In this document: positions 2,363 through 49,672 of the stretch, one piece after another | Position numbering within the stretch: the stretch's first letter is position 1 | How the letters are laid out: each line of letters begins with the position of its first letter | Position numbers and translations under genes: made by a program | IMG/VR virus record: IMGVR_UViG_3300028048_001604 | Length of the DNA stretch: 64,000 bases | From: an uncultured virus (IMG/VR IMGVR_UViG_3300028048_001604) | Taxonomy: Duplodnaviria; Heunggongvirae; Uroviricota; Caudoviricetes | Reading direction: 5' to 3' (one strand) | Notes under the pieces: model-generated | The model's database searches: none | What the model saw: only the letters and a program-made list of their open reading frames with translations | Told to the model about the DNA's origin: nothing

Positions 2363-2635
2363 TTATCTATATGATGCTTTTCTGTACGCCTCTAGTACCT
2401 TTTCTGTTATCTCCTCCCTAGACTTATTATCTTTTGGATGGACTATATCGAGGTATTTGCGGTCTCTACCCTTGCCTTCGCAACCTTTATTTGGAAAAGC
2501 GATGAAGATACCCTGATTGCCATTTAGGATTTTTATACCTCGGATTACAATAGCATCATCTACTACTACCGTGGCATACCCTAGCAGGGATGTACTTGGT
2601 TTTACCAAGTTAATTTTAATCTCTGTTATCTTCAT
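2363..2635 (-). CDS. spoVG: SpoVG-family nucleic-acid-binding protein
   Basis: MKITEIKI...GYATVVVDDAIVIRGIKILNGNQGIFIAFP...YLDIVHP...REEITEKVLEAY matches the SpoVG pattern; start refined to ATG 2635 (AAAGGAG RBS). Confidence 0.85.
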   Translation of the reverse strand: MKITEIKINLVKPSTSLLGYATVVVDDAIVIRGIKILNGNQGIFIAFPNKGCEGKGRDRKYLDIVHPKDNKSREEITEKVLEAYRKASYR

Positions 2636-43679: not shown

Positions 43680-44813
43680 TTATTTAGGGTATGGTAGATG
43701 AATTTTGAGTATAGAAACTGCCTGTTGCAACTTACCCCATTCATAAGGTTTAATCTCGGCTTTTACCCTAGCTGGCATCCTATTATACCCATCTGGTAAA
43801 CCTGTAAACGCACCATTGAGATTTACCCCGTTATATACAAAACGTATATGCTCAATTACCTCTGGCTCTAGATATTTACCTAGTACCTGACAGATTTCTG
43901 TTAACTTTGCAGGTTCGTTGTATCTGTACTTAACGAAACGAGTCTTCTCTTCGTCAGATAACGAATTGAAATACTCCTCAGAAATATCTAAACCCGTACG
44001 AATATCCTGAGGAATTGGTTGTGCAGTATCATATCTGAATAAATTCTTAATGTCTACCCCATCACGAATCATATCTTCTACAAGGTTATTGAACTTTGTA
44101 GGGGTAAACTTTGGATAGCCTGCAATATTATCTGCCTTCTTACCCCTGAGCAACTTCTTTAGTAGTACGCAATTATAAGGTACGCTTAAATTCTTAAACT
44201 CTGTTAAGTCTTCTACAATAGATTCGTAGTTTGCAGGAGTTACCTGAACATAGTGACGCTTTTCTAGGTCTTTTGATTCTGCCCAAGTATATTTTCTACT
44301 TGTTAGGAAAACTGATACCTGTTCATCAACTAGAGGTAGTAAATCTTGGTCTCCTGTTACAACATCAATAGGTGTATTAGGATAAAGCTCTTTTGCTCTA
44401 TCTACTGCTGCTTTTACAAGGTCATCTGCCTCATACTTTTCATGACTGAGTACTGCGATACCCCCTTGATTTAGCAGTTTTGCAGTCCAGTTAATTGAAG
44501 TATAAAACTCGTCATTCTGCGAAACTCTTGTACCCTTGTAGCCTGCCCCTACTTCTTTGCTACCCTGAGCAAAATAAGTCTTTCTTGAACGACCACAACC
44601 TCTAGAATCGAAACAAACTACTGTAGGGTTGTTACCATAGTCTGACCATCTTACAATGGTTTTAACTACCCCATCAATCAGTTTAGTTGGTACAACCTGT
44701 TGAGTAAAACCGCCTGCACCATTTGGCACCATAACTGTTGCAGTTAAATTAGCTGGGTTGCCATACTGCATCTTGTAGAAGATATGCGTAACGTCAACAA
44801 TTAAAACTCTCAC
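43680..44813 (-). CDS. Stand-alone 5'-3' exonuclease/flap endonuclease (PolA N-terminal-like); start refined to GTG 44813
   Basis: VLIVD, VCFD, YKGTR, YEADD, VTGDQDL, GKKADNIAG motifs; GAAGGAGG RBS. Confidence 0.88.
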   Translation of the reverse strand: MRVLIVDVTHIFYKMQYGNPANLTATVMVPNGAGGFTQQVVPTKLIDGVVKTIVRWSDYGNNPTVVCFDSRGCGRSRKTYFAQGSKEVGAGYKGTRVSQNDEFYTSINWTAKLLNQGGIAVLSHEKYEADDLVKAAVDRAKELYPNTPIDVVTGDQDLLPLVDEQVSVFLTSRKYTWAESKDLEKRHYVQVTPANYESIVEDLTEFKNLSVPYNCVLLKKLLRGKKADNIAGYPKFTPTKFNNLVEDMIRDGVDIKNLFRYDTAQPIPQDIRTGLDISEEYFNSLSDEEKTRFVKYRYNEPAKLTEICQVLGKYLEPEVIEHIRFVYNGVNLNGAFTGLPDGYNRMPARVKAEIKPYEWGKLQQAVSILKIHLPYPK

Positions 44814-44852
44814 TAATAAGCCTCCTTCTATGTGCTCTTTTAATATACATAT

Positions 44853-44881
44853 ATTATACCACAAAATAAGACCTTTGTCAA
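44853..44881 (-). promoter_or_regulatory. Sigma-A promoter TTGACA-17-TATAAT
   Basis: The minus strand reads ttgaca aaggtcttattttgtgg tataat; the -35 lies within an inverted repeat at 44868-44910. Confidence 0.85.
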
Positions 44882-45040
44882 TACTATCTTCATAGTTTAA
44901 CAAAGGTCTTTATAATATAGTAAAATTTCTATCTAAAGATAAAGGTCTTAATGCTACCCCTTATGACTAAAAATTAAATCAAGATGTCTGTATAAGATTA
45001 ACGTCATCTTTGATACTTTAATTATAAAGCAAAAGCAGAC

Positions 45041-46096
45041 TCAGTAGTTTAACTGATTAGCATATTTGTTTATAAGATTAACTAAATATTTTTCAACTTC
45101 TCTTTTATCCTTCAGTTCAAAGTATTTAACATTACTAGAATCATCAAATCTAACATCTAACATAAACTTATTTTTAACATCATTATAAAGAACACCATAA
45201 TATGGATATACCCCATCTACTTTCTTAAGGCTTATAAGATTAACCCATAAACCGTATTCATCATCCATTCTTTCTGCCTCATACTCTATATGGGTTCTAC
45301 TATAAACATCAGTTATAACACTTGTAATTATATCTTTAGCAACTTTAGGACTTATTGCTCTAGAATTTGCAAATACTAAATTAGGTAAACTAGTTATTGT
45401 GATACTCTTAATATCTGACTGCTTCAAACAATCTGCCCAACCTCGATTATTGTAAGTAGTTGCAAAAATATCACCATTTACTACCCATCTATCAGATAAA
45501 TTAGGTTTACCATTTGGTAACTTGGCACAAACTACAAAATCGCCCTTACCATGACTTATACCTACCCCATTGATGTTTAAAACTGCACCCCAAGAAGTCT
45601 GAATCTGACCTTTCTGTGCACTAGGTACAAAACAAGCCATATTTTGTGCTGCCATAGCTTGAGGTGATGTTCTAACTAAAGTCCAATCTAAAAGACCATT
45701 TTTCATTCTTTGACCGAAAGATTGTTGATTAATCTGTAAAGGTTGCCCACCTTGTAAGAAATTGTAAGTCTTAGCTAACTTATCTGGACTTATAACCCAC
45801 ATTTCTCCTACCGTACCACAAAGTACAAAAGGAGTAGCATCAGTAACTGCATAAGCTCTACCCTGAGCTATTAGCCGTTGTAACTGAGCAAGCATAGACG
45901 AATTAGACTTTTGCATTTTTTCAACTTGTTTCGCTGTGAAATAAGTCTTACCACCTAACACCTTAACTACATCAGCTTGTTCTAACTTATTTATTACAAC
46001 TGTATTCTTAGGTGGCATACAAACATAAATCTCATATTGCTTTTTTGAGCAATTTTTATAATTACTAGGGTTGTTAATATCTACAAAAGTACGCAT
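45041..46096 (-). CDS. Hypothetical protein with duplicated PGDYG-like motif; immediately downstream of the structured array
   Basis: FVLCGTVGEMWVISPDKLAKTY and GDFVVC...DRWVVNGDIFATTY resemble the GD.II....GE.YP....IF..TY family; AAGGAGGT RBS. Confidence 0.7.
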   Translation of the reverse strand: MRTFVDINNPSNYKNCSKKQYEIYVCMPPKNTVVINKLEQADVVKVLGGKTYFTAKQVEKMQKSNSSMLAQLQRLIAQGRAYAVTDATPFVLCGTVGEMWVISPDKLAKTYNFLQGGQPLQINQQSFGQRMKNGLLDWTLVRTSPQAMAAQNMACFVPSAQKGQIQTSWGAVLNINGVGISHGKGDFVVCAKLPNGKPNLSDRWVVNGDIFATTYNNRGWADCLKQSDIKSITITSLPNLVFANSRAISPKVAKDIITSVITDVYSRTHIEYEAERMDDEYGLWVNLISLKKVDGVYPYYGVLYNDVKNKFMLDVRFDDSSNVKYFELKDKREVEKYLVNLINKYANQLNY

Positions 46097-46116
46097 AAAT
46101 TACCTCCTTCATCCAA

Positions 46117-46633
46117 ATAGTTAACCTGCATTTACTGGGAGTTTTATCAACGTAATTTATTTTTACTCTTTATTAAGGTTATTCTTACTATCTAGTAGTA
46201 AAAACTCAAGTATATTCCACCGTTTGATAGACATATGGTAAATGCAGGAAACTACCTGATTTCGGGGATACTTGCGTACCCCCTATAACAAGTTGAAAAT
46301 TGGAAAACGTTATAGCAACTCACTGACGTGAGGGGCTACCTGTTTTGGGGTACAGATGATGTACCCCAATCTGGAAAGGAAAAATTGAACAGTTGAAACT
46401 GCCCTGCTAATGGAGTTTCGCCTCCTACAATGGGGCTCCGACTGAGTTATATAGTAACTCACTTACGTGAGGAACTACCCGTTTGAAGGGAGTATTTCTA
46501 CCCCCTTCACAGAAAAAGAGGACTCACAAATATAGCAACTCACAAATGTGAGGAACTACCTTGTCTCTTAGGGTACTTGCGTACCCTAGATGAAAGAAAG
46601 ATGCAACCACAAAAATGGGAAACCTCGACTACA
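46117..46633 (-). ncRNA. Putative structured RNA: four tandem double-hairpin units with variable spacers (unknown class)
   Basis: Hairpin A (GGG(G)UA(C)-loop-(G)UACCC; GCAA/GAAA loops) at 46569-88, 46484-509, 46345-69 and 46264-83. Hairpin B (GGUAG..CUCAC-N4-GUGAG-UU-RCUAUA) at 46531-60, 46450-79 and 46311-40, with an expanded copy at 46117-256. G-U pairs and GNRA loops occur on the minus strand only. Confidence 0.75.
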
Positions 46634-46639
46634 AGATAT

Positions 46640-46668
46640 ATTATACACCCAGTCTTGAATATTGTCAA
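46640..46668 (-). promoter_or_regulatory. Perfect sigma-A promoter TTGACA-17-TATAAT driving the array
   Basis: The minus strand reads ttgaca atattcaagactgggtg tataat. Confidence 0.88.
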
Positions 46669-46705
46669 CAATATCTCTAAAAAATTTAAAATTTCTGGGT
46701 GCTAA

Positions 46706-48964
46706 TTATTTGGTACTATCGTCTTTTGTTGTAGTACCCTCGGAAGTTTCACTCGTTGTATCGTCTTTTGTAGTACCATCGGTTGTTTCATTTGTTGTAC
46801 CGTCTTTAGAGCCTTCTTCTGCAGCAGTACCATCTTGAGAACCTTCTTCCGTAACAGTACTGTCTTGAGAGCCTTCCCCTGTTGTCATACCCTCTTTCAG
46901 ACTTCCGTCGCTATTATACATTTCAGAATTTCCTGTAAATTGCTTAAATGCAGAATAACTAGGAATGTCTCCAGTACCTGCTAGAATCTGGAAATATACG
47001 AAAGGATATTCTCTAGCAAAATCTCTACCCCAACATACGTATTTCTGGTCTAGTGTGGTAGACGCATCCCAATCGTTCATAATTACAGACGAGTTTCCGT
47101 TAATAGTTACAGTATCTGAGAAACCATAAAGCGTTCCTGTTCTAGCACTAATATTACTATTATCGTCTGCTAGACACAATTCTGTTCGCTTTAAGATAAT
47201 AGGGTTAGCCTCAAGGTTCTCTACCTCAATCTCATACGTAATAAGTTGAACTACTGAATCAGTTGTAAAGCCTCTATTTCTACCATCTATCTGCTCGGCA
47301 TAGGTAATAGCGTCTTTGCCTGTCCAATACCCCTTCATTGTAATACGTACATCATGGAATACCCCATTTACATCCTGAGCTTTGGTAATGATAGAAGTAC
47401 CAACTCCTGCAGGTGCCTCTTTCTTTCCATTACCTGACTGCTCTACTTTACTACCATTTCCTTTATAAGAAGTACTTATGTAATGAGTACCTACTAGATT
47501 ATAGAGTAATAACTGCTCTGGCTCCCATGTGGCGTCAACTTCACGTTGTTTGGTTACAGTATCCTCAACCTGTTCAGCTGGCTGAATCCAGTCTGTACCG
47601 TCATCATTCTTTACAGAATAATATCGTACTTTTAGAGAGCCGTCTTCATTGTATTGAATATTGCCTGCTTCGTCATATTCATACCAAGGCTCCCATAATG
47701 ATTTATTCTTAACAAAATGACCACCTGCATAACGATTATGCTCAGCATCCCAATACCCACCATCTGCAAAGAATCTTTCTTCAAATTTAGCTTTCCAAGA
47801 ATCATACTCAGGGTTATGTACCATTTCTGTTGTTTGATAATCTTCCATCTTTTTGCCTGTCCAGTCAACAATAACCTGACCGAAAGCATCCTCAAAATTA
47901 TGAAAATCATCAGAACCAAAAAGTAAATCATCTAGTTTAGAATCATCTGCTAAATTTACATTTAAGTCAACAGTTTTTGTTGGAATCTCTTTGAGGTCTG
48001 ATACCCATTGGAACATAAGGTCTGCTACTTCATCCTTATAAGTATAGTCTGTTTCAGCATACTTTGCAGATTTATACAACATTTTTATATTTTTACTATC
48101 AGATTTACACTGCTTTGCTAAAGCATTATAGTCTGGTATAGTAATTTTGTTTGTTGTAACATTTGTAGTACTGCCTATCTTCTTTAAGAAGTCTTCACGT
48201 ACAGTATTTGCGTTTACCCAAGACCACTCTTGTGCTAAATATGAGTCTCCGTTTTTTGAACCTATAACTGCATCGAGTGATTTTGCGTTATACCCATGTA
48301 AAGCTGAGTTTAAAGAACTATAATCCGTTGTTTGTACTACCTGTTTTGGCTTAAACTTTTTGATAGCATATTTTGCACCAAATAAGCCTGCTACAATAAC
48401 TATAATAACTATTAGGAATATTAGCAACTTCGATTTTTTCTTTTTAGGTTTGCTACCCTTAATGTTCGGAGTGATACCCTGCCTGCGTAAAAGTACAAAC
48501 TTATTTTGCATAGTCTCCTGTACAAAACCTAGAGATACAAGGGCTTGCCATGAGTCTGCGTTCAAACCATACCCGTATAGAGTACCCTGTAAATTCTCTA
48601 CCATACTTTTCATAATACCGTGATTACGATAAGTAGGTTCTGCCCATGCGCTATGAATTACAATACAGTTATCTTCGTATGCGTCTAAACCAAATGGATA
48701 GATACCATATACTTTATTTACAAGTTTAGGCTTGTATGCTAACATAAAACCTATCAACTTGTTATCTACAAATGCACCATAGGAAATACCCTGATTGATG
48801 ATAGAGGGTAGCTCAGTCTTGACAGAATTAAAAAGATACACCTTTTTCTGTTTTTTATCCATAGTATCTGGAAATGGAAGTATGTCAGCATAAGTACCGA
48901 CATACATATTTCCAACTGTATTCATATCATTGTACGTTAATACGCGTATTTGCAACTCTGACAT
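46706..48964 (-). CDS. GNAT-acetyltransferase-like domain fused to a TM helix and large extracellular region
   Basis: YGAFVDNKLIGF and AWAEPTYRNHGIMKSM (acetyl-CoA motif A) plus LGF; then KKKKSK and a TM helix; T/D/E-rich C-terminal repeats. Confidence 0.7.
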   Translation of the reverse strand: MSELQIRVLTYNDMNTVGNMYVGTYADILPFPDTMDKKQKKVYLFNSVKTELPSIINQGISYGAFVDNKLIGFMLAYKPKLVNKVYGIYPFGLDAYEDNCIVIHSAWAEPTYRNHGIMKSMVENLQGTLYGYGLNADSWQALVSLGFVQETMQNKFVLLRRQGITPNIKGSKPKKKKSKLLIFLIVIIVIVAGLFGAKYAIKKFKPKQVVQTTDYSSLNSALHGYNAKSLDAVIGSKNGDSYLAQEWSWVNANTVREDFLKKIGSTTNVTTNKITIPDYNALAKQCKSDSKNIKMLYKSAKYAETDYTYKDEVADLMFQWVSDLKEIPTKTVDLNVNLADDSKLDDLLFGSDDFHNFEDAFGQVIVDWTGKKMEDYQTTEMVHNPEYDSWKAKFEERFFADGGYWDAEHNRYAGGHFVKNKSLWEPWYEYDEAGNIQYNEDGSLKVRYYSVKNDDGTDWIQPAEQVEDTVTKQREVDATWEPEQLLLYNLVGTHYISTSYKGNGSKVEQSGNGKKEAPAGVGTSIITKAQDVNGVFHDVRITMKGYWTGKDAITYAEQIDGRNRGFTTDSVVQLITYEIEVENLEANPIILKRTELCLADDNSNISARTGTLYGFSDTVTINGNSSVIMNDWDASTTLDQKYVCWGRDFAREYPFVYFQILAGTGDIPSYSAFKQFTGNSEMYNSDGSLKEGMTTGEGSQDSTVTEEGSQDGTAAEEGSKDGTTNETTDGTTKDDTTSETSEGTTTKDDSTK

Positions 48965-48976
48965 TTAACCAACCTC

Positions 48977-49672
48977 CTAAAAATTCAAACTGCCTAAAAG
49001 GTCATTGATAGAGTCTACCGCTGATTCTTTGTTATCCTCTTCGACAGTTGGTTGTGTTACTGTAGGTTCTTCTTTGACAGGTTGTGCTACTTCTGTTTCA
49101 ACTGACGGCGTTCCAGCTTCAACTTTAGATGGCTCAGTTTCGTCTGCAAATAAATCGTCAGACATAGCTGAGATTACAGCTGTCTCTACCGTTTTATTGC
49201 CACTACCCTGCATACTATCGAGCAGTTTACCCAACTTTTCGTCTAGGATATTATTCAATTCCTCGACAGTTACATAATGAGGGTTTGTAGTTTGAATACC
49301 CAAAGTAAGCTGAGCCTGTGGCTGAGTTTGTGGTTTAGCCTCAGTAGAAGCAGTAGGTGTCTCTACATCGTTCATAATGTCTTGAATGTTTACTACCCCA
49401 TCTGCTAACTGAGCCTTTGCTTGTTGCAGAGCCATCTGCTGTGCCATGATACTTTGATTTATCATCTGCACGGATTGAATAAAGGCTGAATCGTCTTCAG
49501 AGCCTTCCTCATACCCATCTATTGCTCCTGCTACTGTATCATCATTGAGATAAGCCTGTAACATCTTACAAATAAATACACTAATAGACCTATCAGAACA
49601 TTTCTCGCAAACTAAATCGTACACATCACGCATTTCGTCTGGAATCTGTAAACTAATCTGCTTTCTAAACAA
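48977..49672 (-). CDS. N-terminal ribbon-helix-helix-like DNA-binding protein (ParR-like adaptor candidate)
   Basis: KQISLQIPDEM...RSISVFICKMLQAYL beta-alpha-alpha pattern; disordered acidic tail; in the parM operon. Confidence 0.55.
   Translation of the reverse strand: MFRKQISLQIPDEMRDVYDLVCEKCSDRSISVFICKMLQAYLNDDTVAGAIDGYEEGSEDDSAFIQSVQMINQSIMAQQMALQQAKAQLADGVVNIQDIMNDVETPTASTEAKPQTQPQAQLTLGIQTTNPHYVTVEELNNILDEKLGKLLDSMQGSGNKTVETAVISAMSDDLFADETEPSKVEAGTPSVETEVAQPVKEEPTVTQPTVEEDNKESAVDSINDLLGSLNF

Follow-up and report, generated by a model that had tools for sequence, protein, structure and literature searches.

We analysed a 64,000-nucleotide stretch of DNA (referred to here as the window) from an uncultured virus (IMG/VR IMGVR_UViG_3300028048_001604), in which the minus strand carries essentially all genes, and focused on a non-coding array of repeated hairpins at positions 46,117 to 46,668, directly upstream of a gene for a 351-aa protein. 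A sigma-70/sigma-A type promoter leads into ~540 nt without a credible open reading frame (ORF), and a module consisting of a pyrimidine tract, hairpin A, an A-rich linker and hairpin B recurs there four times in that order before the ribosome-binding site (RBS) of the gene. All array coordinates are given on the minus strand, and the features of the locus are as follows.

46640..46668 (-): sigma-70/sigma-A type promoter, score 12/12, with TTGACA at 46668-46663, a 17-nt spacer and TATAAT at 46645-46640
46592..46601 (-): pyrimidine tract Y1 (UCUUUCUUUC), predicted to pair, with 46589-46591, to the RBS region at 46104-46113
46566..46590 (-): hairpin A1, core 46588-46569, UAGGGUAC-GCAA-GUACCCUA, 8 bp, loop GCAA
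46531..46560 (-): hairpin B1, basal helix GUAGU/GCUAU, 2x2 pyrimidine internal loop, upper helix CUCAC/GUGAG, loop AUUU
46511..46522 (-): pyrimidine tract Y2 (UCCUCUUUUUCU)
46484..46509 (-): hairpin A2, 11 bp including one G-U, loop GAAA
46450..46479 (-): hairpin B2, 30-mer, loop GUAA
46370..46449 (-): spacer 3, long, with small local hairpins, pyrimidine tract Y3 at 46384-46373 and a weak terminator-like hairpin at 46404-46387
46345..46369 (-): hairpin A3, 10 bp, 5-nt loop
46311..46340 (-): hairpin B3, 30-mer, loop GUCA, last basal pair C-G
46264..46283 (-): hairpin A4, 8 bp including one G-U, loop GCAA
46117..46256 (-): hairpin B4, basal helix GGUAGUU/AACUAU and an 11-bp perfect upper stem with arms at 46248-46238 and 46135-46125
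46094..46113 (-): translation initiation region of the 351-aa gene, GGAUGAAGGAGG, 6 nt (46102-46097), AUG
45041..46096 (-): 351-aa gene, with an N-terminal PGDYG-like domain of ~240 aa and a variable C-terminal part of ~110 aa

The preliminary description of this DNA had reported a perfect TTGACA-17-TATAAT promoter pointing into a non-coding region built of four hairpin A plus hairpin B units, and both statements are confirmed. The promoter is one of six such sites on the gene strand, a class that also precedes other genes of the element, and transcription from it is predicted to start near 46633. At the other end, the gene's GGAGG (46107-46103) follows 10 nt after the end of B4, and its ATG lies at 46096. 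The N-terminus of the ORF aligns with its homologues, which places the array in untranslated sequence. Two small ORFs within the array (50 and 43 codons) were rejected, as they overlap hairpins and lack an RBS before the start, and an AGGAGG in spacer 3 has no canonical start codon 5-10 nt behind it.

Within the modules, hairpin B is constrained in sequence and hairpin A mainly in structure. B1-B3 follow the pattern GGTAGYYCCTCAC-N4-GTGAGTTRCTATA, which has three matches in the window, a number that 0 of 100 shuffles reached. The B copies are closely alike, with 24 of 34 alignment columns invariant and a mean column identity of 88%, and the base is retained even in B4, where the upper stem encloses a 102-nt AT-rich insert and the B-type basal helix and internal loop are kept. 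The A stems differ in sequence and none contains a mismatch; A1 and A4 are 94% identical over 16 nt. The B copies are separated by gaps of 51, 109 and 54 nt, each with a conserved hairpin A inside, giving an irregular start-to-start spacing of 81, 139 and 84 bp. Spacer lengths, measured as ~43 nt (from the predicted start), 21, 80 and 25 nt, come close to the earlier figures. The spacers are not the free, variable sequences first described, however, because pyrimidine tracts of 10-12 nt stand immediately 5' of A1, A2 and A3; the gene strand of the window, which is rich in purines, has just 19 tracts of 9 nt or more, Y1-Y3 among them. The best exact matches between spacers and other window transcripts are 12-15 nt long, near the chance level that we estimated ourselves, and a 13-nt match of spacer 4 to position 45930 in the downstream gene was rejected on the same ground.

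We next considered the strength and the strand of the predicted fold. The 551-nt minus-strand RNA folds at -184.7 kcal/mol, compared with -130.4 +/- 7.6 kcal/mol in 100 shuffles (z -7.1, none as good), and the array fold has the lowest energy of 41 equal-size segments upstream of genes (-184.8; next -161.7). It is 29 kcal/mol better than the plus-strand fold, and six of the eight hairpins are more stable on the minus strand. G-U pairs in A2, A4 and B1-B3 form on the minus strand only; across the seven short stems every non-Watson-Crick pair is a minus-strand G-U, amounting to about four independent events once shared descent is counted. The last basal pair of hairpin B is U-G in B1, U-A in B2 and C-G in B3, so that pairing is kept. 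The gene strand of the window holds 46 hairpins of at least 8 bp, four of them within the array, and four GNRA-capped long hairpins, three of them within the array. The preliminary description had read the G-U pairs and GNRA loops as confined to the promoter strand and as a sign of selection on RNA; in our analysis, too, both features favour that strand. The evidence favours the promoter strand, not cleanly. The pattern fits a minus-sense single-stranded nucleic acid and, given the promoter, RNA is the simplest reading.

The predicted ensemble also connects the array to the gene. A 9-10-bp helix joins 46598-46589 (Y1 and three flanking bases) to GGAUGAAGGA, with a pair probability of 0.78-0.91 for most pairs; as a mask of the RBS, this modelled helix is suggestive only. 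The B4 insert is also 79% complementary to the start-codon region over 19 nt, a pairing that was rejected because the ensemble does not favour it. No terminator is predicted between B4 and the RBS, and the two terminator-like sites found in 44000-49000 equal the shuffle expectation. We also inspected assembled contigs from four runs (X1, X4, X6 and X10), which carry no strand information. In X6, an RNA library, a 1784-nt contig (44947-46731) of depth 21 spans promoter, array and gene, with flanks at 0-4, a weak hint that array and gene share one transcript.

We tentatively favour, as a real possibility more than a probable one, that the array is a lineage-specific structured 5' leader of the 351-aa gene's mRNA, which masks the RBS and has repeated sites at which it could be bound or processed. 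The array would have arisen by tandem duplication and divergence of one module, composed of the pyrimidine tract, a GNRA-capped hairpin A, the A-rich linker and hairpin B. The transcript would begin near 46633 and continue through the gene, and Y1 would pair with GGAUGAAGGA in the ribosome-binding region, closing the four modules into a single multibranch fold and masking the RBS. Some event that opens or cleaves the leader would then govern translation or mRNA life. In hairpin B, the basal helix with its pyrimidine loop may be what a trans-acting protein or RNase recognises in each repeat, hairpin A would be constrained in structure alone, and the ~20-bp B4 stem would be the most plausible cut site for a double-strand RNase. 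If this leader reading is true, an uncultivated giant mobile element of a rumen Firmicute carries an unusually elaborate, internally repeated control region, and the array offers a clean case of RNA module evolution by tandem duplication and compensatory change.

Several observations weigh against such a leader. Masking of the RBS is not exceptional: its mean unpaired probability of 0.13 is the third lowest of 41 genes, and four other genes score similarly (0.11-0.15). The plus strand also folds well (-155.5 kcal/mol, z -5.2), and A3 and B3 are marginally more stable there. The four units are paralogues, with A1/A4 and B1-B3 sharing descent, and, no homologous array having turned up, the paired changes come from these paralogues. 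The array is upstream of the gene's homologues in 0 of 13 loci (31-75% identity), none of which has a B-like hairpin either. The RNA-library evidence consists of contigs in which no transcript ends are seen, and in X1, also an RNA library, the whole stretch lies in one 32-kb contig that may be DNA carry-over.

The same runs reveal variants in the gene and its RBS. The array is without differences in the three runs that cover it (X1 and X6 fully, X4 except for ~46250-46289); X10 does not cover it beyond 46150. At 46103 the last G of GGAGG is changed to A in three of the four runs. At 46041 one nucleotide of an A-run is lost in codon 19 of the 351-aa gene in two of the four (X4 and X6), a deletion that is absent from X10, which covers the site, and that would shift the frame of the conserved N-terminus.

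The array has no recognisable relatives. Rfam 15 gave 0 matches at gathering thresholds in the 64 kb, in keeping with the earlier remark that no known family was recognised in it. At E up to 10 the sole match was to a microRNA model (16.2 bits against a gathering score of 119, chance level), the ROOL model had no match even there, and we rejected an identity with ROOL. Using blastn against phages and plasmids, we found no related array. The hairpin-B pattern has 0 matches in viral contigs and 0 in metagenome contigs; in genome contigs it has one lone copy (L001), on the chromosome of an unrelated metagenome-assembled genome, which we rejected as chance because neither a hairpin A nor a second copy accompanies it. 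A covariance model of hairpin B run over the window and the 13 loci (178,740 bases) retrieved only the three window copies, the next hits having E ~1. One of these, in L002, was judged chance, being on the opposite strand and without a hairpin A. Dispersed palindromes of REP/BIME type are not seen either, hairpin B occurring only in the array across the window and the 13 loci, and the other intergenic regions of the window have ordinary terminator-promoter layouts. Across the phage, plasmid, viral, genome and metagenome collections scanned, the array is present only in this lineage.

Known array systems were likewise rejected as identities. A CRISPR array, already set aside in the preliminary description, is excluded by the unequal gaps between B copies, with hairpin A inside them, and by the lack of cas genes in the window: Pfam found no Cas family among six neighbour ORFs, 41 further long ORFs and nine small ORFs, nor did PADLOC among eight neighbouring proteins. 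We rejected type III toxin-antitoxin systems (ToxIN, CptIN, TenpIN), as the units are ~60 nt long and 21-80 nt apart, with diverged A hairpins. TIGR-Tas was rejected as well, no Nop family being among the Pfam hits of the window, and box C/D motifs (RUGAUGA, CUGA) are absent from the 544-nt array. Together, the region is a real, statistically robust, orphan structured RNA region, new in architecture and likely ordinary in role.

We then turned to the 351-aa protein, which has 72 homologue clusters, all metagenomic and none named. Its conserved N-terminal domain of ~240 aa contains an invariant H-G-x-G-D motif. The protein scores 17.7 bits against PGDYG (PF14083) in Pfam, where the cutoff is 27, and Atlas structure rows for PGDYG clusters have TM values of 0.47-0.49. 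AlphaFold models the N-terminal domain confidently (pLDDT ~90) and the C-terminal part poorly. Foldseek against the PDB at E <= 0.001 gave no match, and the N-terminal domain has no PDB fold match; a wide structural search found only the low-confidence residues ~245-350 to resemble a common alpha/beta arrangement (best Z 11.0, rmsd 3.0, 98 residues). Apart from the sub-threshold PGDYG score, the protein has no Pfam, PHROG, NCBIfam or PADLOC match. It bears no ToxN/AbiQ, nuclease, Cas, Nop, IS110 or defence-family signature, none of the 13 homologue loci has Cas, ToxN, Nop or nuclease signatures, and tblastn against phage and plasmid records found nothing. The protein is PGDYG-like, and nothing points to an RNA-guided enzyme, nuclease or toxin.

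The homologue loci share little else with the window, as none of 14 other window proteins tested matches in them. In L002-L004, two small ORFs, which have promoters of their own, take the equivalent position. These loci also encode another, diverged paralogue (31-34% identity) ~2 kb downstream of the first, at 7402-8037 in L002 and at 7374-7991 in L003 and L004. Searches for non-coding RNAs, one covering 9 of the 13 loci and another all 13, found a ROOL RNA ~840 nt upstream of distant homologues in L010 (3547-4165, 288 bits) and L012 (3513-4158, 263 bits). In these two loci tRNA-Met and ROOL stand 0.8-1.8 kb upstream of the gene, and in L013 tRNAs flank it on both sides; tRNAs lie at 3212-3288 in L010 and at 3181-3332 in L012, and L013 has eight. 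In the three most distant loci the gene thus sits in non-coding-RNA islands, which is a recurrent neighbourhood, not a conserved partnership. L013 also contains, between two tRNA genes, a G+C-rich stretch of ~600 nt (1725-2325) that lacks an obvious ORF, matches nothing in Rfam at gathering thresholds and may be another large structured RNA.

The hairpins share a word with the rest of the element. All eight carry GGGTAC or GGTAG(TT) in their 5' arms, and no pentamer of the gene strand is more over-represented than GGGTA (5.9-fold over composition), which has 346 copies there against 21 on the other strand in the whole window (16:1). Copies fall in each of the three reading frames and also between genes. 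Genes contain 324 of them, where 100 synonymous-codon shuffles give 95.7 +/- 7.3 (maximum 117), a 3.4-fold excess, and the spacing of the word is unusually even (CV 0.74 against 0.99 +/- 0.05 for random placement; 0 of 2000 random sets as low). The strand ratio of GGGTAGTT is 17:0. Related biases occur in L002-L008, which have 3-16 copies of GGGGTAG against 0 (consensus GGGGTAGTT), and in L009 (GGGTAT 21:0, GGGTAC 14:0); L010-L013 lack the word. A literature search for the heptamer returned primer lists only. Oriented recombination, translocase and priming signals elsewhere run with the G-rich strand, and the orientation of GGGTA resembles these by analogy. Selected at synonymous sites, strand-biased and even, GGGTA gives a handle on how such elements mark strand or direction and may matter more than the array. 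Other asymmetric words are also skewed: GTCTC is absent from the gene strand, for which synonymous shuffles inside genes predict 16.4 +/- 4.1 copies, its complement GAGAC has 72 copies, and GAAGAC stands at 40:0, so that all copies of the sites GAGAC and GAAGAC point one way. Such one-way orientation blunts restriction enzymes that need inversely oriented sites.

The setting is that of a large mobile element. The window has a G+C content of 36% and a GC skew that is monotonic over its 64 kb, with no turn of the cumulative skew at the array. Genes recognised are those for an SNF2 helicase, an FtsK/SpoIIIE-family ATPase, a clamp loader, an HU-like protein, a 5'-3' exonuclease, a ParM/Alp actin-like protein, a T2SSE secretion-type ATPase, a ParA-like ATPase, a RecJ/DHH-like protein and a SpoVG homologue; most ORFs are without any match. 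GGAGG ribosome-binding sites precede the genes, and TTGAC[AT]-N16-18-TATAAT sites number six on the gene strand and none on the other, which together suggests a Firmicute-type host. Isolate phage and plasmid records contain no nucleotide or protein match to the window, and relatives sought in viral contigs with the 351-aa protein, its alignment and the secretion-type ATPase gave none. Public runs containing the stretch are labelled bovine gut metagenome (24 rows from 14 studies), 11 of them with at least half of the sampled words and 8 recorded as RNA libraries. Relatives of one gene sit on metagenome contigs of 46 to ~360 kb, which makes the element a giant uncultivated replicon, phage- or plasmid-like and of rumen origin. 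The SpoVG homologue (window 2363-2635, minus strand) has 90 aa and a Pfam E of 1.9e-22. SpoVG proteins in Firmicutes bind DNA and RNA, which makes this one a candidate nucleic-acid-binding factor that nothing ties to the array. Downstream of the 351-aa gene, a second 12/12 promoter with a TG extension (44853-44881, minus strand) falls within a listed ORF at 43680-44903 that has a TTG start; the 5'-3' exonuclease gene really starts, probably, at a GTG at ~44813, after a GGAGG.

The leader reading has to be set against several others. The array could instead be a stand-alone non-coding RNA acting in trans. It would be either one large ornate RNA of ~540 nt or the precursor of four small RNAs, and each of these would join a double-hairpin scaffold to a single-stranded, pyrimidine-rich 5' part that might serve as a seed for purine-rich RBSs. 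We consider this rather unlikely. Its modular build, the pyrimidine tract before A1-A3 (3 of the 19 in 64 kb), a structure that is extreme for the element and a strong promoter of its own all fit such an RNA, as do the islands around distant homologues of the downstream gene (L010, L012 and L013) and a length similar to that of ROOL, which averages 581 nt (PMC5737381). However, no terminator is predicted between array and gene, only a weak hairpin in spacer 3, an RNA-library contig joins the two, spacer complementarity to window transcripts is at chance level, and neither ROOL nor any other Rfam family matches. Improbable, in our judgement, is a role at the DNA level, in which palindromic or single-stranded-DNA sites concentrate the oriented word GGGTA(G/C), possibly as a single-strand origin or as a cluster of sites where a DNA translocase or a recombination or replication factor is loaded or recognises the DNA. 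G-T pairs are tolerated in DNA hairpins too. The presence of GGGTAC or GGTAG in the 5' arms of 8 of 8 hairpins, the over-represented, strand-biased and evenly spaced GGGTA of the gene strand, relatives with 11-16 copies of GGGGTAG(TT) against 0 per ~10 kb, and an FtsK/SpoIIIE-family gene in the window agree with it, whereas the consensus promoter aims straight into the array, GNRA loops are enriched, B copies are irregularly spaced and the cumulative GC skew does not turn at the site. Elsewhere, moreover, the word lies mostly within genes and not in hairpins, and the sharing may be a general sequence bias. The hairpins may use the word or merely share the bias of the element, so that both this DNA-level role and an RNA that reads the word keep some weight. 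The latter, a similarly long shot, would be a new modular RNA (four scaffolded small RNAs or a pseudo-four-fold ornate RNA) whose hairpins display GGGTA(G/C) and GGTAGTT and titrate or program a factor reading the word throughout the replicon or its transcripts. If true, a structured RNA would be linked to a genome-architecture signal in a giant rumen mobile element. An RNA that acts in trans or reads GGGTA would be a new class among the few large or multi-copy structured RNAs that phages and plasmids carry, such as ROOL and GOLLD.

A cis-acting antiterminator like HK022 put, EAR or conAn2, modifying polymerase to pass downstream terminators, is very improbable. The array resembles put in its adjacent stem-loops after a strong promoter and in keeping structure while sequence varies, and the window is one long co-directional gene array. 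The conAn2 regions are poorly conserved and structured, span 260-600 bp and belong to Gram-positive mobile elements (PMC8191782). Yet no strong terminator is predicted in or after the unit (44000-49000), the next gene has its own 12/12 promoter at 44881, before which the RNA contig stops, and the upstream gene product, at 752 aa, is not a small conAn1-like protein. We find hardly credible the reading with which the preliminary description ended, in which processing of a repeat-spacer array yields scaffolded RNAs that act together with the 351-aa protein. The layout of promoter, repeats and gene and a protein of unknown function leave room for it; against this stand the conserved linkage that was looked for and not found at the 13 homologue loci, L002-L004 holding two paralogues without an array, the missing synteny, and the lack of ToxN/AbiQ, toxin, nuclease, Cas, Nop, IS110 or defence-model matches and of box C/D. 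The units are neither identical nor abutting and their spacers are unequal in length, and the codon-19 deletion (2 of 4 runs) and the changed GGAGG (3 of 4) occur beside an unchanged array. Since no array is found at the 13 loci and no Cas, ToxN, Nop or nuclease signatures accompany the gene, a guide-RNA or antitoxin reading is not supported; the preliminary description was right in what it described and over-interpreted the partnership.

Compared with known systems, the array comes closest in anatomy to several regulatory RNAs without coinciding with any. The put RNAs of HK022 (putL and putR) are two adjacent stem-loops of ~60-70 nt just downstream of a strong promoter. Like the array, and on a comparison of anatomy alone, they are promoter-strand RNAs whose copies keep structure and differ in sequence; in contrast, the array has its unit four times in tandem and a pyrimidine tract before each, with no downstream terminators evident, and its host lineage is Firmicute-like where that of put is enterobacterial. 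ToxI-type repeats are near-identical, abutting units of 34-45 nt before a ToxN/AbiQ endoribonuclease. Type III toxin-antitoxin loci share with the array the order of promoter, tandem RNA repeats and protein gene on the same strand, whereas the array has diverged units of ~60 nt set 21-80 nt apart and a PGDYG-like protein.

CRISPR, phage mini-arrays and TIGR arrays also combine structured repeats with non-repeated sequence under one promoter (PMC12045711). TIGR stem-loop arrays have segments that are variable but consistently palindromic, and TIGR-Tas systems place a Nop-domain (Tas) protein beside the array, with box C and box D flanking dual spacers of 8-12 nt (PMC12045711). Those arrays are regular, whereas the present array has an irregular period, unequal spacers, no cas or Nop-domain genes and no box C/D. 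The conAn2 and zipper-type attenuator leaders of pLS20-family conjugation operons are long (260-600 nt) and poorly conserved cis-regulatory leaders (PMC8191782, PMC13401043). They resemble the array, on its proposed leader reading, as structured leaders in Gram-positive mobile elements in which long-range pairing of the leader ends decides the outcome. They form one long imperfect stem, whereas the array is a repeated double hairpin, has a 752-aa gene upstream where they have the small conAn1 and shows no intrinsic terminator to switch. Finally, ROOL and GOLLD have in common with the array a rumen origin, a place in phages or mobile elements, a size of ~540-580 nt and a very high degree of structure (PMC5737381). 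They are built of multistem junctions and pseudoknots, whereas the array consists of simple hairpins repeated four-fold and runs up to an RBS with no predicted terminator in between.

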